64,000 bases of DNA from Nitrospirota bacterium (lineage in GTDB: Bacteria > Nitrospirota > UBA9217), in contig DASPSR010000007.1 in the NCBI GenBank assembly GCA_035623825.1, positions 224,603-288,602 of the forward strand, read 5' to 3'. The translations under genes and the position numbers were made by a program. Of this stretch, positions 1,137 through 46,759 are shown piece by piece. Below the pieces are notes generated by a model. It had not been told where the DNA came from. It was given only the letters and a program-made list of their open reading frames with translations, and made no database searches. Numbering within the stretch: position 1 is the stretch's first letter; each line of letters begins with the position of its first letter.

Positions 1137-2189
1137 ATGCTTTTCTCAAGAAAAATAGAACCGATTGCACTTGACATAGGGTCCTCCTTCATCAAGCTGG
1201 TGCAGTTGAAAGGCTCCAAAGGGGCCTATCAACTCGTCAAGTTCGGCATGGTGCCTCTGCCGCCTGAGGTGATCGTCGAGGGGGCGGTCATGGACGCCGG
1301 CCGCGTCGTTGATGCGATCAAAGAGCTCCTCGCAACGCAGAACGTGAAAACGAAGGAAGTGGTGATATCCGTTTCCGGAAGCTCCGTCATCATCAAGCGC
1401 ATCGCAGTGTCCGATGCTACTGAAGAAGAGCTTGCCGAATCCATCAAATGGGAAGCGGAACAGTACATTCCATTCTCTATCGATGACGTGAACGTGGATT
1501 TCCAGAAACTTGGCCCGGGCGCTGCCGAGGGACAGGCGGACATCCTCCTTGTTGCCGTGAAAAAGGACAAGATAAACGACTATATCAACCTCGTGAAGGA
1601 GGCTGGTCTGGAGCCCGTTGTCATGGATGTTGACGCCTTTGCGCTGGCTAACATGTATGAGCTCAACTATGAAATGAGCGCGGGTATCACCGCGCTTCTT
1701 AATATTGGCGCCTCGGTCATGAATATCAGTATCCTGAAAGACGGTGTGTCAATCTTCACGCGCGACATCACAGTCGGCGGCAACCGCTACACCGAGGCGC
1801 TCCAGAAAGAGTGTGGACTCAGTTATGAGGATGCGGAAAGGGTCAAGCAGGGAGAGGCCGTTGAGGGCGCGGATGCCGAGAACGCCTCGAGCGTGATGTC
1901 ATCGGTGACAGAGGACATAGTGGGTGAGACGCAGCGGTCTTTCGATTTTTTCCGGTCCACAACGGGAAGCGACAGCGTTGCGCGGGTGCTGGTATCAGGC
2001 GGATGCGCGCGAATCAAAAATTTTACGAACGCACTTTCCGAGCGAATAGGAATCCCCGTGGAGATCACGAACCCATTCAAGAACGTCAAGGTCGACCCTA
2101 AGCGGTTTAATCCGGCAGCCCTACAGGAGGCAGGACCCCAGTGCGCCGTGGCGGTAGGACTTGCGATAAGGAGGCCTGGAGACCGATGA
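1137..2189 (+). CDS. pilM: Type IV pilus assembly protein PilM
   Basis: LDIGSSFIK actin-like fold, WEAEQYIPF, C-terminal AVAVGLAIR; operon order. Confidence 0.95.
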   Translation: MLFSRKIEPIALDIGSSFIKLVQLKGSKGAYQLVKFGMVPLPPEVIVEGAVMDAGRVVDAIKELLATQNVKTKEVVISVSGSSVIIKRIAVSDATEEELAESIKWEAEQYIPFSIDDVNVDFQKLGPGAAEGQADILLVAVKKDKINDYINLVKEAGLEPVVMDVDAFALANMYELNYEMSAGITALLNIGASVMNISILKDGVSIFTRDITVGGNRYTEALQKECGLSYEDAERVKQGEAVEGADAENASSVMSSVTEDIVGETQRSFDFFRSTTGSDSVARVLVSGGCARIKNFTNALSERIGIPVEITNPFKNVKVDPKRFNPAALQEAGPQCAVAVGLAIRRPGDR

Positions 2190-2734
2190 TCACGATTAAT
2201 CTCCTACCCACCAAACGCAAACCGCCAAAAAAAATAACCGAGCTTCAGCAGCAAATTGTTCTCGGCATGCTGATTTTGGTCCTCACGGGGATCGGCTTTT
2301 TGTACTTCTGGACCCAGCTGAACAGCCGTATTGAGAGGCTGCAGCGGGACAATGAAGCCGCGGAGGCCCGGGTTCGCGAACAGGACAACATGCTCAAGGA
2401 AGTACAAACCGTCGAGGAAGAAAGGAAAAAGGTTGCTGACAAGATCGGGGTCATCGAACAGCTGAAAAAAAACCAGAGCAGTCTTGTCCGGCTTCTAGAC
2501 GAGGTTAGCAAGGCACTGCCGCTGGGCGTGAACCTGACATCGCTGTCTGAGTCGAGCGGTCAAGTAAACGTTGAAGGCACAGCTTTCACAAATAACGATA
2601 TCGTCAGATTTGTAGATAACCTGAAGGCGTCACCGCTATTGACGGACGTCTTCTTGCTGGAATCAGCACAGGCCGCACAAGAGGGAGTTGAAATCTATAA
2701 ATATAAGCTGAAGTTAGTTTTCAAGGGAGCGTAA
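2186..2734 (+). CDS. pilN: Type IV pilus assembly protein PilN
   Basis: INLLP motif, TM, coiled coil; ATGA overlap with pilM. Confidence 0.95.
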   Translation: MITINLLPTKRKPPKKITELQQQIVLGMLILVLTGIGFLYFWTQLNSRIERLQRDNEAAEARVREQDNMLKEVQTVEEERKKVADKIGVIEQLKKNQSSLVRLLDEVSKALPLGVNLTSLSESSGQVNVEGTAFTNNDIVRFVDNLKASPLLTDVFLLESAQAAQEGVEIYKYKLKLVFKGA

Positions 2735-3372
2735 TGGCGCAGGCTATAGCCATAGACAAAATCGCGGTTCAGATACAGAAAATCCCGTCGAAGACGAGAG
2801 TGGTGGGATTTTTTGCTTTTTTGGGCGTTCTCGTGATCCTCTTTATCTGGCAGGTCCACATCCCCAAGAAGACGCAGATCAGGCAGCTCGAGAAGGATAT
2901 CGCCGTAGTCCAGGCAAAGATAAATGACAACGACGCGAAGATCAGGAGACTCGATGAGCTCAAGGCTGAAGTGAAGTCGCTCGAGAGGAAGCTGCAGGTG
3001 CTAACGGAACAACTCCCTCCGGGAACCGAGGTTTCCGGATTGCTGCGGCAGATACAGAACCTCGTGAGCCAGTCGGGCCTCTCGCTCAAACTTTGGAGGC
3101 CGGAAACACGGAAGGTGCATCCAAGCGGGTTATACGAAGAAATTCCCATCACCATGGAGCTTGACGGCGGGTACCATAATTTGGCATCATTCTTCGACCA
3201 AGTGAGCAAACTGACGAGGATCGTAAACATGCTGAACCTCAAAATGGGTTCTGCGACGATCAGTAAATCGGGGAACACGGCGATAAAGATAAACTGTACA
3301 GCCATGACCTTTGCGGCAGTGGAGAAAAAACCTGATGTGGCATCGGGACCAGCAACCCAGAAAGCAAAATAG
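2734..3372 (+). CDS. pilO: Type IV pilus assembly protein PilO
   Basis: TM + coiled coil, LP..TEVSGLL, YEEIPI...GGYH..F..V.KL.RIVN. Confidence 0.93.
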   Translation: MAQAIAIDKIAVQIQKIPSKTRVVGFFAFLGVLVILFIWQVHIPKKTQIRQLEKDIAVVQAKINDNDAKIRRLDELKAEVKSLERKLQVLTEQLPPGTEVSGLLRQIQNLVSQSGLSLKLWRPETRKVHPSGLYEEIPITMELDGGYHNLASFFDQVSKLTRIVNMLNLKMGSATISKSGNTAIKINCTAMTFAAVEKKPDVASGPATQKAK

Positions 3373-3901
3373 CGGGCGTCTTGCCCGTGCTGCAGTGCTC
3401 CTGGCAGGGGCAATGATCGCGCTCGCCGGCTGTCCCGAGACGCAAAAGGCTCCGACAAAGCCTGCGACCCAGCCGGTGCAGAAGCAGCCCATCGTCTCAG
3501 CCCCGACCAGGACGGAGATTGCAAAGACTGAAGAAAGGCCCGAGCGGGCATATACCTATAATCCGACCGGCAGGAGTGACCCCTTTGCGCCCATTATCGT
3601 TAAGGAAGGCAGTAAAGGGAAAGGGGGAGACCGTCCACCTCTGGAGCGGTACAACCTGAGCGAGTTCAAGCTTACGGGGATCGTCTGGGGCGGTTTTGGT
3701 TACAATGCGATGCTTGAAGGTCCGGATGGAAAAGGCTATTTTGTCCGAGTCGGCACCATTGTCGGTCCCAATCGCGGGGTTGTGAAGAAAATTACGCAGA
3801 ACACCATGGTTGTCGAGGAAAAGTACAAAACATACACGGGAGAAACCGAACGCAAGGAGATTGTAGTCGAACTCCGGAAAAAACAGGAGGAGACCCCATG
3901 A
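3335..3901 (+). CDS. pilP: Type IV pilus assembly lipoprotein PilP (start uncertain)
   Basis: Lipobox LAGC, Y.P.GRSDPF, PLERY.L...KL.GI. Confidence 0.9.
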   Translation: MWHRDQQPRKQNSGRLARAAVLLAGAMIALAGCPETQKAPTKPATQPVQKQPIVSAPTRTEIAKTEERPERAYTYNPTGRSDPFAPIIVKEGSKGKGGDRPPLERYNLSEFKLTGIVWGGFGYNAMLEGPDGKGYFVRVGTIVGPNRGVVKKITQNTMVVEEKYKTYTGETERKEIVVELRKKQEETP

Positions 3902-34596: not shown

Positions 34597-35348
34597 CCGG
34601 AAGGCCGGAAGCAGGGGTCCGAGTATTCAAGGACGAGGAAGAGTTGAGCCGAGCTGCTGCAGAATTCTTTAGGGAGGTCGCACAGGAAAGCATCATCGCA
34701 CACGGAAGATTTGCTGTAGCCCTCTCGGGAGGATTTACACCTCGACGGTTCTATTCCCTTCTGGGGTCGCCCTCGTATCGCGATGTACTGGACTGGTCCC
34801 GAATACATATCTTCTGGGCAGACGAACGATGCGTCCCACAAGACCGGCCCGAAAGCAATTACAAGCTCGTCTATGACGCATTTTTGTCGAACGTCCCCCT
34901 CCCAGCTAAAAACATTCACCGCATACGGGGAGAGGAGGAACCCGCTTACGCTGCGCTAACGTACGAAAACGAACTGCGAAGTTTTATCGACGGTCCTGGA
35001 ATGGTGGTTTTCGATCTCGTCATCCTCGGAACTGGCGAAGACGGGCACACGGCCTCCCTTTTCCCCGGATCTGACGCACTGCTTGAGAGAACGCGGCTTG
35101 CCGTTCCGGTCTTTCTCGACCAACCGAAGATAAACCGTGTCACACTTACGCTGCAGGTCTTGAATCATGCTGCGCAGGTCCTCTTCCTGGTGTCGGGGCG
35201 TGCAAAGGCCGATATCGTCCGGGACATCCTTGAAGGCGGCGAAACACAACGCTATCCGGCCGGACAGGTGAGACCGGTGAGCGGGGAAGTTGCCTGGTTC
35301 ATTGACCAGCAAGCAGCAGGGAAATTGAGGGACTGCGGCTGCACATAA
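34593..35348 (+). CDS. pgl: 6-phosphogluconolactonase
   Basis: ALSGG.TP, DERCVP, SNY, G.DGHTASLFP; GTGA overlap with zwf. Confidence 0.93.
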   Translation: MTGRPEAGVRVFKDEEELSRAAAEFFREVAQESIIAHGRFAVALSGGFTPRRFYSLLGSPSYRDVLDWSRIHIFWADERCVPQDRPESNYKLVYDAFLSNVPLPAKNIHRIRGEEEPAYAALTYENELRSFIDGPGMVVFDLVILGTGEDGHTASLFPGSDALLERTRLAVPVFLDQPKINRVTLTLQVLNHAAQVLFLVSGRAKADIVRDILEGGETQRYPAGQVRPVSGEVAWFIDQQAAGKLRDCGCT

Positions 35349-35430
35349 GCCTTTAGCAGGAAGGGTCTTGGCGATGCCCGCACTAGCGGTGTTTTTGTGA
35401 TAAAATTGATGGAAAGGAGGTGAAAACAGG

Positions 35431-35595
35431 ATGAAAAAGACGATGAATAAGAAAGTTCTCGCCAAAGAGGCTGCCTACTGGAACGCCATGAAACAGGTGG
35501 CGAAGCAGAATCCTGGTACGGTATGCCACAAATGAAAGGGCTGAAAGAGCTGAAGTTGCTGGTCAGCAACGAAACGGTTGGTTGCCGGCAGGTAG
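35431..35595 (+). CDS. Putative multi-selenocysteine RiPP precursor (54 aa if all three TGA are read as Sec; 40 aa if the third is the stop)
   Basis: SD AAGGAGGTGA at 35414-35423; MKKTMNKKVLAKEAAYWNAMKQVAKQNPGTVCHK(U)KG(U)KS(U)SCWSATKRLVAGR; TGA at 35533, 35542, 35551; SECIS-like hairpin; next gene is rSAM/SPASM. Confidence 0.7.
35555..35570 (+). promoter_or_regulatory. SECIS-like hairpin
   Basis: GTTGCT-GGTC-AGCAAC; resembles E. coli fdhF SECIS core GTTGCA-GGTC-TGCACC. Confidence 0.65.
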
Positions 35596-35656
35596 GGTGA
35601 CGTCTACGGCATGGTGAAATACAGCGGCGTTCACCATACCTGCCCTTCTTTCATTT
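35587..35656 (+). terminator. Stem-loop/terminator between precursor and maturase
   Basis: GGCAGGTA (35587-94) pairs with TACCTGCC (35637-44); inner ATGGTGAA/TTCACCAT; followed by T-rich CTTCTTTCATTT. Confidence 0.5.
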
Positions 35657-35687
35657 AATTTCCTCCTGTTGTTATCATTTCATTGCT

Positions 35688-36737
35688 ATGTCTATTGCGG
35701 CCAATAAGCCTTTCGATTTTTTTATTCAATGGCATCTTACGGAGATGTGCAATCTCTGGTGCAAGCACTGCTACCAGGGCGAGCGTAGCAGCGAGGAGTT
35801 GTCTCTACCGGAGGCGAAAGGAATCATCTCCGAAGTGTCTGCCATGCTCCAAGAATGGTCGAAAGCCTACGACGTCGCCTTCTCTCCAAGTTTCAATATT
35901 ACTGGCGGCGAGCCGCTCTTGAGGCGAGATCTATTCGATATCCTTGGCGAGATCAACGGGAACGGCTTTGAAATATTTCTCCTGACAAACGGGACGCTGG
36001 TAGACTCGGTGCGGTCCCGGATGCTGGCTGAGTTGGGCGTCAAGGGTGTCCAGGTGAGCATCGAGGGTGGTGAAGAAGTTCACGACTCCATCCGGGGCGA
36101 AGGAAGTTTTGCCGCCTCTGCCGCAGGCATAGAACGTCTTGTCGATGCCGGTATCCCTGTCACGCTGAACGTCACGCTCTCCAATCTCAACGCAAGGCAA
36201 ATGAAAAAGGTCATAGCATTCGGCTCTCATGTCGGCGCCCGCAGAATCGGCTTTTCCCGCTTGGTACCTTACGGTAGGGGGAGGTCCCTGCTGCCACAGG
36301 CACTGGAGCCGGCACAGGTACGGGAGCTGTATGAGTCGCTCTGGTCTCTCGAAGTAAATAGTCTGGAGATTGTTACCGGAGATCCACTCGCATCACAGAT
36401 GAAGATACGATCCAACGGCGATGCGGGAAACATTGCAGTCTCGGGCTGCGCTGCGGGAGTGTCGGGACTGACGATTCTGCCTAATGGTAACGTCACGCCG
36501 TGCAGAAGGCTTCCTCTTTCCATCGGGAACGTGAGGAGGCACTCGCTTCGCAGGATCTGGGCCACGTCACCTGTGCTCGAAGCACTCAGGGACCGGAGCA
36601 GATACAAGGGAAAGTGCGGCGCCTGCAGCAGGTGGGCGCATTGCAGAGGCTGTAGGGCGATTGCATACGCTTTCTCCCGTTCCCGGGGATATGATGATTT
36701 TCTCTCTGACGATCCGCAGTGTTTCCTGGAACGGTGA
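35688..36737 (+). CDS. Radical SAM/SPASM domain protein (candidate peptide maturase)
   Basis: CNLWCKHC, TGGEPL, TNG; SPASM C-AAG...G.VTPC...CGACSRWAHCRGCRA...DPQC. Confidence 0.93.
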   Translation: MSIAANKPFDFFIQWHLTEMCNLWCKHCYQGERSSEELSLPEAKGIISEVSAMLQEWSKAYDVAFSPSFNITGGEPLLRRDLFDILGEINGNGFEIFLLTNGTLVDSVRSRMLAELGVKGVQVSIEGGEEVHDSIRGEGSFAASAAGIERLVDAGIPVTLNVTLSNLNARQMKKVIAFGSHVGARRIGFSRLVPYGRGRSLLPQALEPAQVRELYESLWSLEVNSLEIVTGDPLASQMKIRSNGDAGNIAVSGCAAGVSGLTILPNGNVTPCRRLPLSIGNVRRHSLRRIWATSPVLEALRDRSRYKGKCGACSRWAHCRGCRAIAYAFSRSRGYDDFLSDDPQCFLER

Positions 36738-40948: not shown

Positions 40949-41080
40949 TGTATGCTATCCTAGACTGTAGGAAAAACTACATTCCTTTAAGCATCCGCTT
41001 CAGGATATGGTTTCCTCTTCCTCTAACAATCTGATTTTATTGCATGATTTGAAACAATCCGTTTTGGCCTGTGCATTGCA
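40949..41080 (+). promoter_or_regulatory. Putative sigma54 promoter with upstream TGT-N10-ACA activator sites
   Basis: TGGCCTGTGCATTGCA (GG-N10-GC) at 41065-41080; TGTAG-N6-CTACA at 40966-81 and 40707-22; variant at 40949-64. Confidence 0.55.
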
Positions 41081-41103
41081 TTTATCCATTCAGGAGGAAC
41101 ACC

Positions 41104-42351
41104 ATGCGCTCACTATTCATTGTTCTCTTGATCGCTCTGATCTCCTGTCCGGCGGTATCTTGGGCTGAAGAGGCCGTAATAACCCTCAAAGAACTGGAGC
41201 AGGAAGCCCTCAAGAACAACCCTGAGATAGCAATGGCCGATAAAAAGACGGAGTCCGCGAAGGAGAAGGAGAGCGCGGCCTCGGCCATGCCGGACCCCAT
41301 GATCGGGTACGAGATCCAGAACGTGGGAGCGCTTGGAACATCGACAGTCGGGATTGAGGAGATGAGCATGCAGGGGTTCGTGGTCTCCCAGGAGATCCCG
41401 TTCCCGGGCAAGCTTTCAACGAAAGGCAACGCGGCACACAAGCAGGCCGAGCGTGAACAGGAAAACAGCCGCGCGACTAAGTTCAGGATCTTGAGCAGTC
41501 TCAGGAGCGCCTATTTCGACTACCACCTTGCCTATCGTGCGGCCGATATCCTGGAGCAGAACAAGGAGATCATGAAAAACTTCCAGCATATCGCCGAGAC
41601 ACGCTTTGCAACGGGACAGGGGATCCAGCAGGACGTGCTTCGGGCGCAGCTGGAAGTTTCCATGCTGATCGAGAAGCTCACGATGCAGGAACAGAAAAGG
41701 GAGACGCAGCGCGCATTGATCAACGCCCTTCTCGGCCGCGACCCACGGGGCCCGCTCGGGAGGCCGGGAAACAGCCTCGACACGACGTATCCAGCCAGAC
41801 TCGATGATCTGAGCGCTAGGGCCCTTGAACACTCCCCGATGCTTGCCGGAAAGAGGAGAATGGTCGAGCAGAGTGAATATGAATTGTCCATGAGCAAACG
41901 GGAGTATTTGCCCGATATGACGGCTTCGGTCGGCAGGTTCGAACGGGGAGGGCTCAAAGACGTATGGCAGGCGAGCGTAATGTTCAAGGTCCCGCTTTAT
42001 TTCTGGAACAAGTCTGCCGCGGTAAGGGCCGCAGACGCGGACCTGCACTCCGCTCGTTATGAGTACGATGCCGACAAGATCGCCACGCTGTCCCGGGTCA
42101 ATGAGCTCTATACCATGGCAAAGACATCTGAACAGTTGTTGAATCTCTATGACGCCGGCATCCTGCCTCAGGCACGGCTCGCCCTAAAGTCCGCGACGAC
42201 CAATTATGAGGTCGGCAAAATAGACTTTTTGTCACTGCTTGAGAGCCAATCCGTGCTTTTTCAATATCAACTGCAATATGAGAATGAACTGGTGAACTTG
42301 AACAGGACCATTTCCATGATATCCGAGATAATCGGAGAGGATGAACAATGA
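41104..42351 (+). CDS. TolC-family outer membrane efflux protein (CusC-like)
   Basis: Signal peptide, ALKNNPEI, Q.IPFPGKL, Y..G.IDFL.LL. Confidence 0.88.
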   Translation: MRSLFIVLLIALISCPAVSWAEEAVITLKELEQEALKNNPEIAMADKKTESAKEKESAASAMPDPMIGYEIQNVGALGTSTVGIEEMSMQGFVVSQEIPFPGKLSTKGNAAHKQAEREQENSRATKFRILSSLRSAYFDYHLAYRAADILEQNKEIMKNFQHIAETRFATGQGIQQDVLRAQLEVSMLIEKLTMQEQKRETQRALINALLGRDPRGPLGRPGNSLDTTYPARLDDLSARALEHSPMLAGKRRMVEQSEYELSMSKREYLPDMTASVGRFERGGLKDVWQASVMFKVPLYFWNKSAAVRAADADLHSARYEYDADKIATLSRVNELYTMAKTSEQLLNLYDAGILPQARLALKSATTNYEVGKIDFLSLLESQSVLFQYQLQYENELVNLNRTISMISEIIGEDEQ

Positions 42352-43538
42352 AAAAGTCTATCATATATTTTCAAAGCTCGGTTGTCGTTCTGCTTGTTCT
42401 TCTTTTTCTCGCTGTGGCTTCCGCCCAGGATCATGCCGGTCATCAACAGACTGGGGAGGGCGCGACCCAGCCCAAGAATGAACAGCACGAGGCTCCGAAT
42501 CCGGGTGTGCAGGAGACGATGCCCACAGTTGTGCTCAGTCCCGATAGGGTGCAGCTGATCGGCGTGCGGACCGCGCCGGCTGAATATCATGTTGTAGACA
42601 GGCGCATCCGTACGGTAGGCAAGGTGGAGCCTGACGAGACGAGGCTTGCTTTTGTGAACACGAAGATAACCGGATGGGTCAAGAAGCTATATGTGAATTT
42701 CACGGGAGATCGTGTTGAGAAAGGCCAGCCTCTCCTCTCGATTTACAGCCCGGACCTGGTAACAGCGCAGGAGGAGTATCTGCTTGCCCTTCGTTCCCTC
42801 AAAAGTTCTCCGACTGTAACGGGCGGTTTCTCTGAATTGGAGGATGCCCGCAGGGAGCTGCTGGAATCCTCCAAAAGACGCCTGCTCCTGTGGGACATTA
42901 CCGAACAGCAGATAGATGATCTCGAGAAAACCGGGAAACCGAAGACGGAGATAACGCTGGAGGCGCCGCTGAGCGGCATCGTCCTGGAAAAGATGGTACT
43001 GGACGGCACATATATCACGCCAGGGATGAACCTGTACAGGATCGCTGACCTATCACGCGTCTGGATCATTGCGGATATTTACGAATTTGAGGCGCCGATC
43101 GTCAAGATCGGGCAGGAGGCCCTTGTCACATTCGCCTATGAGCCCGGAGTTTCTATCAGGGCTTCGGTGATCTATATCTATCCGGTGCTCGATCCCATGA
43201 CAAGGACCATCAAAGTCCGGCTGGCAGCCGAAAACCCCGAACTCAAGCTGAAACCGGAAATGTTCTCGAATGTGGAGATCATGGCTGCAACCGGGGCCCG
43301 GCTCACTATCCCGACCGAGGCCCTCATCGACTCCGGCCCGCGAAAGATCGTGTACGTGGAGAAAAAACCAGGTACCTACGAGATGCGCCAGGTGACGCTC
43401 GGCATCAGGGGAACGGACTACGTTGAAGTATTGAAAGGAATACGAAAAGGAGAGCGCGTGGTGACGTCAGGTAATTTCCTGATCGACTCCGAGAGCCAGC
43501 TCCGCGCGGGGCCAGGCGGGGGAGGGCATCAGCATTAA
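42348..43538 (+). CDS. cusB: CusB-like RND periplasmic adaptor
   Basis: YSPDLVTAQEEYL, LKPEMF, SGNFLIDSES, His-containing termini. Confidence 0.85.
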   Translation: MKKSIIYFQSSVVVLLVLLFLAVASAQDHAGHQQTGEGATQPKNEQHEAPNPGVQETMPTVVLSPDRVQLIGVRTAPAEYHVVDRRIRTVGKVEPDETRLAFVNTKITGWVKKLYVNFTGDRVEKGQPLLSIYSPDLVTAQEEYLLALRSLKSSPTVTGGFSELEDARRELLESSKRRLLLWDITEQQIDDLEKTGKPKTEITLEAPLSGIVLEKMVLDGTYITPGMNLYRIADLSRVWIIADIYEFEAPIVKIGQEALVTFAYEPGVSIRASVIYIYPVLDPMTRTIKVRLAAENPELKLKPEMFSNVEIMAATGARLTIPTEALIDSGPRKIVYVEKKPGTYEMRQVTLGIRGTDYVEVLKGIRKGERVVTSGNFLIDSESQLRAGPGGGGHQH

Positions 43539-43606
43539 CACCGGGAGGCACGAGATATGGGGGTGAGAGATATCCAGATTCTGACATTTGAACTTAAGGA
43601 TGAACC

Positions 43607-46600
43607 ATGTTAGCCAAAATCATTGACCTGTCGGCACGAAATAAATTCCTTGTTTTCCTGGTAGTGGTCTTTCTGATCGCGTGGGGAGTCTGGGCGATCT
43701 ACAGCACCCCCCTGGACGCCATCCCCGATCTTTCCGATGTGCAGGTGATCGTCTACACCGAGTGGACGGGCAGGAGCCCGGACCTGGTCGAGGACCAGAT
43801 CACCTACCCGATCGTGTCCACGCTGCTTGCCGCACCCAAGGTAAAGGTGGTGCGTGGAAAGTCCTTTCTCGGCGTATCCTTCGTATACGCTATATTTCAG
43901 GACGGCACCGACATTTACTGGGCCAGGAGCCGCGTATTGGAGTATTTGCAAGGGGTGGCCGGCCGGTTGCCTGCGGGCGTGACGCCTGTGCTTGGGCCGG
44001 ATGCCACGGGCGTAGGTTGGGGTTTCCAATATGCGCTGGTGGACGAAAACGGCACGCACGATCTTGCCCAGCTCCGCTCGCTCCAGGATTGGACCCTGAA
44101 ATATGCCCTTGCTTCCGTGCAGGGCGTCTCTGAAGTGGCGAGCGTCGGGGGGTTCGTGAAGCAGTATCAGGTCACCGTGGACCCGAACCGGACCCACGCC
44201 TACAAACTTTCCCTGATGAAGGTCATGGAGGCGATCCGCAGGAGCAACAGCGATGTCGAGGGCAGGGTGGTCGAGTGGTCGGGCCGGGAGTATATGATCC
44301 GCGGTCGCGGCTACATCAAGGACAAAACGGATATTGAAAAAATCGTTGTCAGCACCGACGGCAAGGGGACGCCCGTGCTCTTGCGCGACGTTGCGGATGT
44401 GCGCCTCGGGCCTGAAATGCGGCGAGGAGCGGGAGATCTCGACGGTAAAGGTGAAGCCGTGGGCGGCATCGTCGTCGTCCGTTTCGGTGAGAACGTGCTC
44501 GGAGTCATCGAGAGGGTGAAGCAAAAGATAAAGGAGATCGAGCCTTCCCTGCCTGCGGGAGTAAAGATCGTCACGACCTATGATCGCTCGGAACTGATAC
44601 ACAGCTCAGTTGATACGCTCAAGGAAGAGATCGTAAAGCTGGGTTTGGCCGTGAGCGTCGTCTGCCTTGTGTTCCTGTTCCATCTGCCCAGCGCCTTTGT
44701 GGTGATCCTGACGCTCCCGATTGCGATCCTGATGTCCTTTATTTGCATGTATTATCTGCGGATCAGCTCGAATATCATGAGCCTTTCAGGAATCGCGATC
44801 GCTATCGGCGCTATGGTGGACGCCTCGATCATCATGGTCGAGAACGCGCACAAGAAACTGGAGGACTGGGAGGCGAGCGGCAAGACGCACGGCTCGCGCG
44901 TGGATGTGATCATCCATGCTGCCCAAGAGGTCGGTCCATCGCTCTTCTTCTCGCTCTTGGTTATAACGGTCGGTTTTCTTCCCGTGTTCACGCTCGAGGA
45001 GCAGGCTGGGCGGCTCTTCAAACCGCTCGCCTACACCAAGACCTTCTCCATGCTCTTCGCGAGCTTCCTGGCCATCACGCTCACGCCGGTATTGATGACT
45101 CTCTTCATCAAGGGAAAGATCCGGCACGAGGACGACAACCCGGTCAGCCATTTTCTCATTAAGTTCTACCATCCCGTGGCTAAATTTTCGCTCCACTATC
45201 GGAAACTTGTCATCATTGTCGCCGTCTTGATCGTGATCATCACGGTTTTTCCCTTCTCGAAGCTCGGCTCGGAGTTCATGCCGCCCCTGTATGAGGGCAC
45301 CCTCCTGTTCATGCCCTCGGCGCTTCCCGGCGCTTCGATCACGACTATGACGGACATTCTCCAGGCTGAAGACCGGATACTGAAGCAGTTCCCGGAAGTG
45401 GAAAGGGTCTTCGGCAAGACAGGCCGCGCTGAGACTCCTACTGACCCCGCACCCCTTGAAATGGTTGAGACGAACGTGACCTTGAAGCCGATGAAAGAAT
45501 GGCGTCCCCAGTTCACCAGATGGGAGGACCTGCGGGACGAGATGGATAACGCCCTTACGATCCCCGGCGTGGCTAACACCTGGACCATGCCAATCATCGG
45601 CAGGATCGACATGCTCTCCACGGGGATCAGGACGCCCCTAGGCATCAAGATATTCGGCCCTCGGCTAGATGAGATCGAGCGGATAGGCCTCGATGTTGAG
45701 AAGACCATCCGTGAAGTGCCGGGCACCCGAGGGGTCTATGCGGAACGCGCGAACACAGGCTACTTCCTTGATTTCACCATAAACCGCGATGAAATTGCTC
45801 GATATGGTTTCACGGTGGACGACGTGCAGGAGATCATTCAATCGTCCATAGGCGGTATGAATCTCACCACCACGGTTGAGGGAAGGGAACGCTACCCCGT
45901 GAATGTCCGTTATCCCAGGGAACTGCGCGACGACATCGAAAAGTTAAGGCGTGTGCTCGTGCCTCTTATGGACGGTAACCACGTGCCGCTTGCGCAGCTT
46001 GCAGATATCAAGGTTGCCCGTGGCCCCGGCCTTGTGCAGAGCGAGGGCGGAAGGCTTACAGCCGCGGTGACTCTCAACATCGAAGGGAGCGACTTCGGCG
46101 GGTATGTGATGCGGGCCAATAAGGCAATTGCTGAAAAAGTGAAGCTGCTTCCCGGCTATAGCCTCAAATGGAGTGGCCAGTACGAGTACATGGAGAGCGT
46201 GAAGGCCAAGCTCTTCTATGTGATCCCCCTCACGCTGCTTATCATCATTGTGCTGATCTACTTGAATACGACGTCATGGCTTAAGACGGCCATTGTGCTC
46301 CTGGCCGTGCCGTTCTCGCTCGTGGGCACTGTGTGGCTCCTCTACTACCTCGGCTACCACATGAGCACCGCGGTCTGGGTCGGCGTGATCGCCCTTGCCG
46401 GGCTCGATGCCGAGACGGGCATCGTGATGCTTCTCTACCTCGACCTTTCGTATAACCGGTGGAACCAGGAAGGCAGGATCAACACCCTGCGCGACATTGA
46501 AGACGCGGTCATGGAAGGTGCGGTGAAGCGGATCCGGCCTAAGATCATGACCGCATCGGTGATCTTGGCGGGACTCGTGCCGATCATGTTCTCGACCGGA

Positions 46601-46759
46601 ACGGGCGCGGATGTGATGAAGCGCATCGCTGCGCCCATGGTTGGTGGCGTAGTCACATCAACCATACTAGAACTCATCATCTATCCAGCCATTTACGTTA
46701 TCTGGAAGGAACGGGTATTAAAAAGGGAAACATCGAGAAAAACAGAGATTTCGGATTGA
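43607..46759 (+). CDS. cusA: CusA-type heavy-metal RND permease
   Basis: DAIPDLSDVQVI, YWARSRVLEYL, GAMVDA, APLEMVET, RPKIMT. Confidence 0.93.
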   Translation: MLAKIIDLSARNKFLVFLVVVFLIAWGVWAIYSTPLDAIPDLSDVQVIVYTEWTGRSPDLVEDQITYPIVSTLLAAPKVKVVRGKSFLGVSFVYAIFQDGTDIYWARSRVLEYLQGVAGRLPAGVTPVLGPDATGVGWGFQYALVDENGTHDLAQLRSLQDWTLKYALASVQGVSEVASVGGFVKQYQVTVDPNRTHAYKLSLMKVMEAIRRSNSDVEGRVVEWSGREYMIRGRGYIKDKTDIEKIVVSTDGKGTPVLLRDVADVRLGPEMRRGAGDLDGKGEAVGGIVVVRFGENVLGVIERVKQKIKEIEPSLPAGVKIVTTYDRSELIHSSVDTLKEEIVKLGLAVSVVCLVFLFHLPSAFVVILTLPIAILMSFICMYYLRISSNIMSLSGIAIAIGAMVDASIIMVENAHKKLEDWEASGKTHGSRVDVIIHAAQEVGPSLFFSLLVITVGFLPVFTLEEQAGRLFKPLAYTKTFSMLFASFLAITLTPVLMTLFIKGKIRHEDDNPVSHFLIKFYHPVAKFSLHYRKLVIIVAVLIVIITVFPFSKLGSEFMPPLYEGTLLFMPSALPGASITTMTDILQAEDRILKQFPEVERVFGKTGRAETPTDPAPLEMVETNVTLKPMKEWRPQFTRWEDLRDEMDNALTIPGVANTWTMPIIGRIDMLSTGIRTPLGIKIFGPRLDEIERIGLDVEKTIREVPGTRGVYAERANTGYFLDFTINRDEIARYGFTVDDVQEIIQSSIGGMNLTTTVEGRERYPVNVRYPRELRDDIEKLRRVLVPLMDGNHVPLAQLADIKVARGPGLVQSEGGRLTAAVTLNIEGSDFGGYVMRANKAIAEKVKLLPGYSLKWSGQYEYMESVKAKLFYVIPLTLLIIIVLIYLNTTSWLKTAIVLLAVPFSLVGTVWLLYYLGYHMSTAVWVGVIALAGLDAETGIVMLLYLDLSYNRWNQEGRINTLRDIEDAVMEGAVKRIRPKIMTASVILAGLVPIMFSTGTGADVMKRIAAPMVGGVVTSTILELIIYPAIYVIWKERVLKRETSRKTEISD

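Follow-up and report, generated by a model that had tools for sequence, protein, structure and literature searches.

Introduction

The closest described counterpart of the system reported here is SbtA/SbtM, in which a selenocysteine (Sec, U) containing peptide with GGUG or SGUG motifs is processed by a radical S-adenosylmethionine (SAM)/SPASM maturase that forms a thio(seleno)oxazole (PMC9204691; PMC13188914, Table 1) and that modifies the natural Sec peptide (PMC9204691). Within the portion available to us of a 2026 inventory of 119 prokaryotic selenoprotein families, SbtA/SbtM is the only peptide of such a kind. Here we describe a two-gene cassette from a Nitrospirota bacterium (UBA9217) that encodes a 40-residue peptide with two Sec codons and, directly downstream of it, a radical SAM/SPASM enzyme of 349 residues. 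The cassette lies in a stretch of 64,000 nt (assembly GCA_035623825.1, contig DASPSR010000007.1, 224,603–288,602 of the forward strand), called the window below, and all coordinates are positions in this window with position 1 as its first letter.

Sec is also handled by the SPASM maturases PapB and Tte1186, which accept Sec, bind it to the iron of an auxiliary cluster and form selenoethers (PMC10177961). Two further groups of families resemble our peptide in the placement of Sec, as listed in PMC13188914, Table 1: the 'UXX-star' families NF041114 and NF041211 have a Sec three residues before the stop, and the UxxU families NF041115 (metal-binding) and TIGR02605 (FmdB-type) have two Sec residues spaced U-x-x-U. 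A Sec only three residues before the stop leaves room for the selenocysteine insertion sequence (SECIS) only at the stop codon or beyond it. Our peptide differs from these four families as none of their models matches it and as its 40 residues form a leader and a core that have a radical SAM/SPASM enzyme dedicated to them.

Results and Discussion

A conserved gene for a peptide with two selenocysteines

A preliminary description of this stretch had reported a Shine–Dalgarno sequence, an open reading frame (ORF) with a basic, leader-like N-terminus, three TGA codons and a TAG at 35593, and all of these were found in their places (Table 1). The TGA codons at 35533, 35542 and 35551 follow each other in three-codon steps that continue from the Cys codon TGC at 35524, and if each TGA is translated as U, the product of this frame is MKKTMNKKVLAKEAAYWNAMKQVAKQNPGTVCHK-U-KG-U-KS-U-SCWSATKRLVAGR, ending with the TAG at 35593–35595. 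The peptide is rich in lysine. The start is preceded by a GGAGGTGA stretch in most homologues too, where it can be recognized from translations such as 'GGE..RM' or 'ERRU.RM'.

A genome scan with one genome per species gave 303 loci with a relative of the enzyme, the best 80 of which were kept and make up, together with the window, the 81 loci analyzed here. In 66 of them a peptide gene with the core pattern C-x-[KR]-U-x-x-U-K-x is located directly upstream of the enzyme gene, and the pairing of such a peptide with the radical SAM enzyme, until then seen in the window, is therefore carried by the homologues as well. Including ten unlinked copies, the family set comprises 76 peptide genes. Counted through the residue that follows the last Lys, 60 of these 76 genes are exactly 40 codons long, and in all 76 an in-frame stop follows within zero to two codons after residue 40. 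Among 75 distinct peptides E13, C32, K34, U35, U38 and K39 are invariant, M1, A14, W17, P28, K36 and S40 are conserved to at least 90%, and U38 is preceded by G, S, A or E.

The first and the second TGA are TGA in every gene of the family (76/76; 66/66 when the linked loci are counted), and the codons behind them vary synonymously. After the first TGA, K36 is AAG in 48 and AAA in 12 of the 66 loci and G37 is GGC, GGT or GGG, and after the second one K39 is AAG in 53 and AAA in 13 loci and S40 is AGC in 50, AGT in 5, TCA in 4 and TCT in 3. The switches of Ser40 from AGY to TCN require that selection acts on the serine and not on the bases. For the 60 genes of equal length the diversity at codon position 3 is 0.448 compared to 0.244 and 0.226 at positions 1 and 2 over the whole gene, and 0.272 compared to 0.079 and 0.086 in the core codons 32–40. 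Both sites thus show a UGA that is conserved in homologues together with coding constraint downstream of it, as is typical for a selenoprotein gene, and on this comparative evidence the synonymous variation and the in-frame stop downstream show that translation runs past both TGAs. Judged from the aligned genomes, this is a real and conserved gene for a two-Sec peptide with a SECIS right behind its stop codon, which is coupled to a dedicated radical SAM/SPASM enzyme without a recognition element (RRE) for RiPPs, peptides that are made by the ribosome and modified after translation.

The expectation that gene callers would miss such a Sec-containing gene was borne out by the databases. The 17 homologues that we fetched and inspected, including all the longer ones, end with C-[HRL]-K at the first TGA (17/17), and the public annotation therefore has the family only as 'hypothetical proteins' of 31–37 residues ending at this codon. 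Searching a collection of 5.8 billion proteins with the single peptide (8 matches) and with a profile of 75 sequences (137 matches, of which the 120 listed span no more than 85% of the query) gave no form with Cys in place of Sec within reach of these queries, and more distant Cys forms are possible. Cys-containing homologues are usual for bacterial selenoproteins but not obligatory. No NCBIfam model matched the peptide, neither in its 54-residue form (E up to 1) nor in its 40-residue form (E up to 10), and a description of this two-gene system was not found in our literature search.

Table 1: Features of the selenopeptide cassette (positions in the 64,000-nt window).
Feature	Position	Strand	Remarks
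Shine–Dalgarno sequence AAGGAGGTGA	35414..35423	+	read directly; 7 nt before the ATG at 35431
Selenopeptide gene, 40 codons + stop	35431..35553	+	MKKTMNKKVLAKEAAYWNAMKQVAKQNPGTVCHKUKGUKS
Leader, residues 1–31	35431..35523	+	holds the conserved helix K12-E13-A14-A15-Y16-W17, and N27-P28-G29
Core C32-H-K-U35-K-G-U38-K-S40	35524..35550	+	alignment of 75 distinct peptides
First Sec codon UGA, residue 35	35533..35535	+	TGA in 66/66 loci; loop of the hairpin begins 28 nt downstream
Second Sec codon UGA, residue 38	35542..35544	+	TGA in 66/66 loci; loop of the hairpin begins 19 nt downstream
Third TGA, stop and not Sec	35551..35553	+	codon after residue 40 in 76 genes: TAA 30, TGA 24, TAG 11
SECIS-type hairpin GUUGCU-GGUC-AGCAAC, 6 bp	35555..35570	+	loop 35561–35564; starts 1 nt after the stop
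Long imperfect hairpin (35587–35644) and U-rich tail, terminator-like	35587..35660	+	RNA fold; arms GGCAGGUA.../...UACCUGCC
Radical SAM/SPASM enzyme, 349 residues	35688..36737	+	Pfam Radical_SAM PF04055 73.2 bits, SPASM PF13186 42.9 bits

The SECIS hairpin and a second, terminator-like hairpin

The SECIS-like hairpin of the preliminary description turned out to be a constant feature of the family, as a hairpin of at least 5 bp is present right after the stop in 66/66 loci. These hairpins have 22 different stems, the commonest being GUUGCU-GGUC-AGCAAC (19 loci) and GUUGCC-GGUC-GGCAAC (15 loci), and the stem changes are compensatory, with U-A replaced by C-G at several pairs and with a wholly different GGCCGCCG/CGGCGGCC stem among them. 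The apical loop is GGUC in 33, GGUCA in 14 and GUC in 10 loci (57/66 together), and in 60 of the 66 loci it starts 27–30 nt after the first UGA, which corresponds to 18–21 nt after the second one. In loci where the peptide is longer by one or two residues, the hairpin comes nearer to the stop, and its spacing is therefore held relative to the UGAs and not relative to the stop. In E. coli fdhF the apical loop of the SECIS is likewise GGUC and follows the UGA at a distance of about 21 nt, and surveys of bacterial SECIS elements give a distance of 16–37 nt between UGA and loop. The stem-loop, the G/U apical loop and the constrained distance that characterize a SECIS are all found here, with the second UGA fitting the canonical spacing and the first UGA being at the long end.

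The long imperfect hairpin that follows (Table 1) has counterparts in most of the family, a terminator-like stem with a T-rich tail being present in 70 of the 76 genes under loose criteria set for this analysis. Its 5' arm has a consensus, GGCAGAUAUGGC, that is common to many loci across distant lineages including unlinked peptide genes (the window and L020–L109), and such a sequence-conserved arm is unusual for a plain terminator stem. An Rfam scan of 35300–35750 gave no family near threshold. In the minimum-energy fold the codons 34–36 (AAAUGAAAG, including the first UGA, 35530–35538) pair with the U-rich tail at 35648–35656 (CUUUCAUUU), which may be chance.

Coupling of the peptide gene to the enzyme gene

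The 3.24-Mb source genome contains a single match to the degenerate core pattern and none to the reversed control, and with its recurrence in 66 of the 81 related loci the arrangement of peptide and enzyme gene is more than chance. Of the 15 loci in which no peptide gene adjoins the enzyme gene, two are located at contig ends (L080 and L088 are without upstream sequence), three (L093, L098 and L099) belong to genomes outside the genome-wide search, and ten belong to genomes that were searched. Exactly one pattern match was found elsewhere in each of these genomes (10/10; control 0), and all ten unlinked copies are complete with leader, core, stop, hairpin and terminator-like stem, their surroundings being varied.

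To this we can add the distribution in 201 genomes of the phylum, in which enzyme orthologues are present in 36 (at least 409 bits, the next-best match having 238 bits). The core pattern is matched in 40 of the 201 genomes, 35 of them with true genes, whereas the matches in the other five (G013, G072, G090, G134 and G152) have neither leader nor hairpin and were rejected as chance look-alikes. The peptide is present in 34 of the 36 genomes with the enzyme, and the 165 genomes without an enzyme orthologue contain one true peptide gene, which lies 90 bases from a contig end in G189. As related genomes are not independent we only give counts here. Altogether the system is found mainly in Nitrospirota and also in some Desulfobacterota, and it shows the genetic coupling of a leader-plus-core peptide to a modifying enzyme that is characteristic for RiPPs. 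An all-against-all clustering of the ORFs from the 81 loci revealed nothing conserved beyond the enzyme, with pentose-phosphate genes being shared in close relatives only.

Some of the loci have peculiarities of their own. Where the peptide gene is unlinked (L041, L046, L053, L062, L078 and L081; 7 loci in the cluster), the enzyme gene is often directly preceded by one for a conserved membrane protein that has four helices and about 130 residues. The loci L072 and L076 belong to one metagenome-assembled contig with two peptide-plus-enzyme cassettes near its two ends. In L107 (G007:C13:29562-32585) an ORF at locus positions 1990–3027, about 450 nt downstream of the unlinked peptide gene, encodes a radical SAM-like protein with a CxxxCxC-type motif (...GNKCNQSCCHCH...).

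The radical SAM/SPASM enzyme

The gene following the peptide gene had been taken for a radical SAM/SPASM enzyme without a separate RRE, and this agrees with the Pfam scan, which found the Radical_SAM and SPASM domains (Table 1) and no other domain, RRE and PqqD included. The cluster motif C21-x3-C25-x2-C28 and seven Cys in the SPASM region (254, 272, 310, 313, 319, 322 and 345) are all invariant in 22 sequences, and these ten residues correspond to the CxxxCxxC motif and the seven-Cys SPASM domain that define this class of enzymes. In SPASM domains, seven Cys for two auxiliary clusters leave one iron open for a thiolate or selenolate of the substrate. Homologues of 345–349 residues cover 99–100% of the enzyme from the start at 35688. 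The public gene call P0003 (330 residues, 95% coverage) starts later than this ATG, and the start at 35688 is the better one because the N-terminal NKPF-FFIQWHLTE is conserved in homologues. Among the 8000 candidates scored, at least 2664 are relatives of the enzyme at E ≤ 1e-30; the 120 matches listed show 64–100% identity, and the few of them that have a source name are from Nitrospirota.

The best NCBIfam scores of the enzyme are those for AhbD (190.9 bits) and NirJ2 (175.2 bits), both with cut-offs of 500, followed by TIGR04053 (160.9, cut-off 395), GeoRSP (159.1, cut-off 400) and mycofactocin MftC (143.3, cut-off 265). SbtM (TIGR04082) reaches 143.1 bits with a cut-off of 350 and is matched only at model positions 199–516 of 516, and PapB (73.4, cut-off 340) and AlbA (68.7, cut-off 850) score lower still. 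The nearest solved structures by sequence are SkfB (79.1 bits), PqqE (67.3 bits), anSME (52.7 bits) and 5wgg (44.2 bits; 'Radical SAM domain protein', which we take to be CteB).

A paralogue in the same genome (G000:C48:89038-90309) reaches 318.7 bits for NirJ2 and 307.9 bits for AhbD. This NirJ2/AhbD-like protein, encoded by the ORF at locus positions 1539–2810 of L120 (G000:C48:87500-91500), has 423 residues with a C-terminal extension of about 75 residues and is also below the cut-offs. More distant paralogues from G116, G144 and G096 (39–41% identity) and from G200 (37%) were examined as possible members and rejected, with no peptide gene adjoining them. In the loci of the first three (L121, L122 and L123) the gene stands directly after, and partly overlaps, a gene for a membrane protein of about 300 residues with a very GC-rich 3' part, and this sister family may be a different radical SAM system.

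For a model of the complex, the enzyme (22-row alignment) was combined with the 34-residue peptide read with code 11 (8-row alignment), three 4Fe-4S clusters and SAM. Three runs gave interaction prediction scores from aligned errors (ipSAE) of 0.87, 0.84 and 0.88, the best of 3 controls being 0.02; 58 of 80 solved complexes attain this ipSAE mark, as do 2 of 110 mismatched pairs. At least 61% of the contacts are common to the runs, and the predicted local distance difference test (pLDDT) value of the partner is at least 72. In the model the leader residues 9–17, including 12–17, are in contact with W57, K60, Y61, R288, W291, A292 and R301, and the peptide residues 16–34, including Cys32, all touch the enzyme, whose interface also includes F12, Q14, S190, T230–P233, G253, C254 and C272. 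It is the C-terminal part of the peptide that meets G231-D232-P233, C254 and C272. Enzyme residues 49–70 form an insert compared to the AhbD-like paralogue and differ in the paralogues at 40% identity. The predicted complex supports a direct, RRE-independent recognition of the leader.

Selenocysteine machinery

The preliminary description pointed to selA, selB, selC and selD as the genes on which a Sec reading depends, and in the source assembly this machinery is only partly seen, as a Sec-type selD is present and selA, SelB over cut-off and tRNA-Sec were not found. The selD gene (375.7 bits) has one in-frame TGA, within the motif GAGUACK, and its translation requires Sec decoding. It is encoded in L008 (G000:C48:64082-67993) by the ORF at locus positions 1432–2520 and is followed by an ORF of 215 residues at 3235–3882. 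The source assembly is also without several ordinary tRNAs. In the genome G186 from the same genus (99% complete) selA (609.3 bits), selB (376.9 bits) and tRNA-Sec (64 bits) are located within 8 kb on one contig, so that the loss of a single contig would remove all three. Sec decoding in the source genome is therefore predicted from its Sec-type selD and from its relatives.

In the phylum as a whole 92 of the 201 genomes have a SelB over cut-off. For the genomes with a true peptide gene this number is 31 of 35, and a further genome carries an incomplete copy where a contig ends. Peptide-positive genomes without SelB are the source genome G000, G157 (86% complete) and G121 (96% complete).

Comparison with known systems

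With SbtA/SbtM, as characterized in PMC9204691 and PMC13188914, the cassette shares a ribosomal peptide with in-frame UGA/Sec, a SECIS directly downstream, a radical SAM/SPASM partner, an occurrence in anaerobes (of deltaproteobacterial type) and probably the number of two Sec residues. That the leader is not of this family had already been suspected, and indeed the TIGR04081 model does not match the peptide even with E allowed up to 10. The enzyme stays far below the cut-off of TIGR04082 (143.1 vs 350 bits) and has no counterpart to the N-terminal third of SbtM, about 200 residues of the 516-position model. Sec is located three and six residues from the C-terminus and is embedded in K-U-K (HK-U-KG) and G/S-U-K (KG-U-KS) instead of GGUG or SGUG, and unlike SbtA/SbtM the present system occurs mainly in Nitrospirota. 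None of the three features tested for membership (TIGR04081, TIGR04082 at 350 bits and a Gly-rich Sec motif) was found, and by these predicted family relations the cassette is of the Sec-peptide-plus-maturase kind and not a member of SbtA/SbtM.

The enzyme also resembles the SPASM maturases of sactipeptides and ranthipeptides (PapB, Tte1186, CteB, SkfB and AlbA) in its radical SAM core, its seven-Cys SPASM domain and the Cys-periodic core of the peptide, and SkfB is its best match by sequence among the solved structures. In contrast to these thioether maturases it has no RRE, scores far under their cut-offs, and meets a peptide in which Sec is natural and obligatory. From AhbD and NirJ2, with which it shares a length of about 340–350 residues, the absence of an RRE domain and the best hidden Markov model scores, it differs by these scores being under the cut-offs, by the closer paralogue elsewhere in the genome and by the insert 49–70, which is used for the leader in the complex model.

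Proposed working and alternative explanations

The comparisons above establish how the gene is built, its reading with two Sec residues, the hairpin and the coupling of the two genes in the genomes. That the enzyme acts on the peptide is inferred. We consider it probable that the two genes form one cassette, in which a two-Sec peptide with a single SECIS is bound at its leader by the RRE-less SPASM enzyme and is modified in its core. SelB would decode both UGAs as Sec by means of the one hairpin that starts a single base after the stop, its GGUC loop resembling that of E. coli fdhF. The enzyme would then bind the leader helix directly, partly via the family-specific insert around W57–Y61, and the Cys/Sec core would thread into the active site beside the first auxiliary-cluster cysteines C254 and C272, where it would be modified by radical chemistry. 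As for the kind of modification, we would favor a bonding of Sec/Cys to carbon in selenoether or thioether cross-links, with the selenolate binding first to the open iron of the auxiliary cluster, and this selenoether chemistry appears plausible by analogy with PapB and Tte1186. An oxidation of Sec or Cys, by analogy with SbtM or anSME, would be the next choice. Since no protease or exporter gene is conserved nearby, the product would stay in the cell or would use general proteases and exporters.

Several observations speak against this proposal. One hairpin must serve two UGAs that are 28 and 19 nt away from its loop, and as the spacing between UGA and SECIS is strict in E. coli, the decoding of the first UGA is the weaker part of the two-Sec reading. 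The genome in which selA, SelB over cut-off and tRNA-Sec were not found is 89.65% complete. About 15% of the peptide genes are unlinked and have a terminator of their own, which would also fit an independent small selenoprotein, and two genomes, G034 and G137, have the enzyme and no peptide pattern, the enzyme gene of G137 carrying an in-frame TAA. A consensus scan of 35250–35750 called no promoter and no terminator, and the term 'terminator-like' is thus based on folds and looser criteria. Finally, the peptide in the complex was modeled without Sec residues, the alignments and ligands lie outside the calibration, and the scores express model confidence only.

Regarding the coding capacity, the preliminary description had read the third TGA as Sec as well, which would give a C-x2-U-x2-U-x2-U-x-C motif and a peptide reaching to the TAG at 35593. 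The frame is indeed open for 13 further codons past this TGA with a Cys two residues on, the third position is TGA in 24 of the 76 family genes, and some low-level read-through is possible; but TAA or TAG is found there in 41 of the 76 genes and eleven more stop one or two codons later, nine of them adding one residue and two adding two. All three stop codons therefore interchange at that position across the family, which makes the third TGA a stop codon, and on this ground we rejected the reading with three Sec residues as very improbable. Also the extension beyond the third TGA is erratic, with the frame to the next stop comprising 0 to more than 60 codons where the third position is TGA. 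The likeness to 'SCWSATK' or 'SCRSATK' downstream is the SECIS hairpin read as protein, and it is not protein conservation, since each of the three frames is used by the beginning of the hairpin's 5' arm in some loci (42, 25 and 6). In addition, the hairpin starts 1 nt after the third TGA, and its loop, at 10 nt, is too close when compared with the 16–37 nt mentioned above. We assign an equally small probability to the opposite idea that no Sec is incorporated at all, the ORF ending at the first TGA after 34 residues and the conserved sequence beyond it being an RNA element or a part of the terminator. Although the 17/17 inspected public predictions stop there and selA, selB and tRNA-Sec were not found in the source assembly, this idea has to face the codon-like variation after both TGAs including the exchange of AGY for TCN at the serine, in-frame stops of all three kinds at one fixed position, a hairpin that keeps its distance to the TGAs when the tail lengthens, a gene that is nearly confined to SelB-positive genomes, and a selD in the source genome that needs Sec decoding.

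With two Sec residues in the peptide, the role of the enzyme and of the peptide can be discussed. A grouping of the enzyme with the Ahb/NirJ heme enzymes had been considered early on, and in this case the radical SAM gene would be functionally unlinked to the small ORF. AhbD and NirJ2 are its best NCBIfam matches and some sources name homologues 'AdoMet-dependent heme synthase', but both scores are far under the cut-offs of 500, the other paralogue scores higher for the same two families, the peptide gene accompanies the orthologues in 34 of 36 genomes, and no heme-pathway gene is conserved nearby. The enzyme thus does not group with AhbD or NirJ, and we regard a heme enzyme as the least probable of all explanations weighed here. 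More weight, though still on the unlikely side, has to be given to a genuine two-Sec selenoprotein that is not a substrate and would instead be an unmodified Cys-Sec-Sec ligand for a metal or metalloid, a redox partner, or a donor of Se or electrons for an enzyme acting on something else. It would agree with the terminator-like hairpin in 70 of the 76 genes, with the peptide gene standing alone in 10/10 tested unlinked genomes and with the absence of any conserved protease, exporter or further tailoring gene nearby, and the predicted complex suits a partner as well as a substrate; moreover, the C-terminal 'UXX-star' selenoproteins are thought to be metal-binding (PMC13188914). What leads us to prefer the peptide as substrate of the enzyme is the layout of a leader and a short core, which is the usual logic of RiPP precursors, the strict genomic co-occurrence with one SPASM enzyme, the position of the modeled core beside the auxiliary-cluster cysteines, and the absence of a further conserved gene near the enzyme that might encode a substrate.

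Surroundings and transcription of the cassette

In the window the cassette is flanked upstream by a pentose-phosphate operon (gnd, tal, zwf and pgl) and downstream by an epimerase and a nitroreductase gene, and no protease or exporter adjoins it, which is in line with the preliminary description. About 4 kb downstream of the cassette (41071–46759) there are three consecutive ORFs, the first of which encodes an outer-membrane efflux protein (OEP, 151.3 bits), and the ORFs of 396 and 1050 residues behind it look like a putative efflux set of the resistance-nodulation-division type. The other loci show no conservation of these efflux-type ORFs along with the cassette.

A 174-nt contig (record 13) from the RNA library run X9, a metatranscriptome, spans 35414–35580 with 2 differing letters, and the same run has exact pieces at 35747–35904 and 36233–36411 in the enzyme gene, for which run X15 contributes another exact piece at 36074–36209. 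Short pieces over 35507–35573 come mostly from the conserved cores of relatives. As such libraries can contain DNA, these contigs are weak evidence of transcription of the cassette, and as all three runs mapped consist of contigs, depth cannot rank the genes and uncovered stretches of the window are uninformative. The DNA also occurs in runs labelled peat metagenome.

Conclusion

In the literature that we searched SbtA/SbtM is the sole natural system with a Sec-containing modified peptide, and the cassette described here, being unrelated to it, looks like a second, undescribed family of modified, Se-containing peptides from anaerobes. Where stop codons replace one another among homologues, a true TGA stop can be told from Sec codons. 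It is conceivable, and we put this forward tentatively as something slightly short of an even chance, that the family represents a widespread and obligately Se-dependent modified peptide or cofactor, whose two Sec and one Cys the leader-binding, RRE-less SPASM enzyme would convert into a product with Se-carbon cross-links, a Se-heterocycle or a Cys-Sec-Sec metal site. Its translation would be unusual in that two UGAs nine bases apart are recoded by a single hairpin of the 3' untranslated region, and an identical third UGA one base before this hairpin terminates. In such an obligately Se-dependent peptide sulfur could not replace Se, as suggested by the absence of a Cys form from the public data searched. 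With no more than two genes, one for a substrate of 40 residues and one for an enzyme of 349, the system is tractable, and it is common in anaerobic Nitrospirota and present in some Desulfobacterota. It might therefore now be possible to address why Se is needed without a sulfur alternative, how a leader is recognized without an RRE, and how one SECIS can serve two UGAs and still allow termination at the third.

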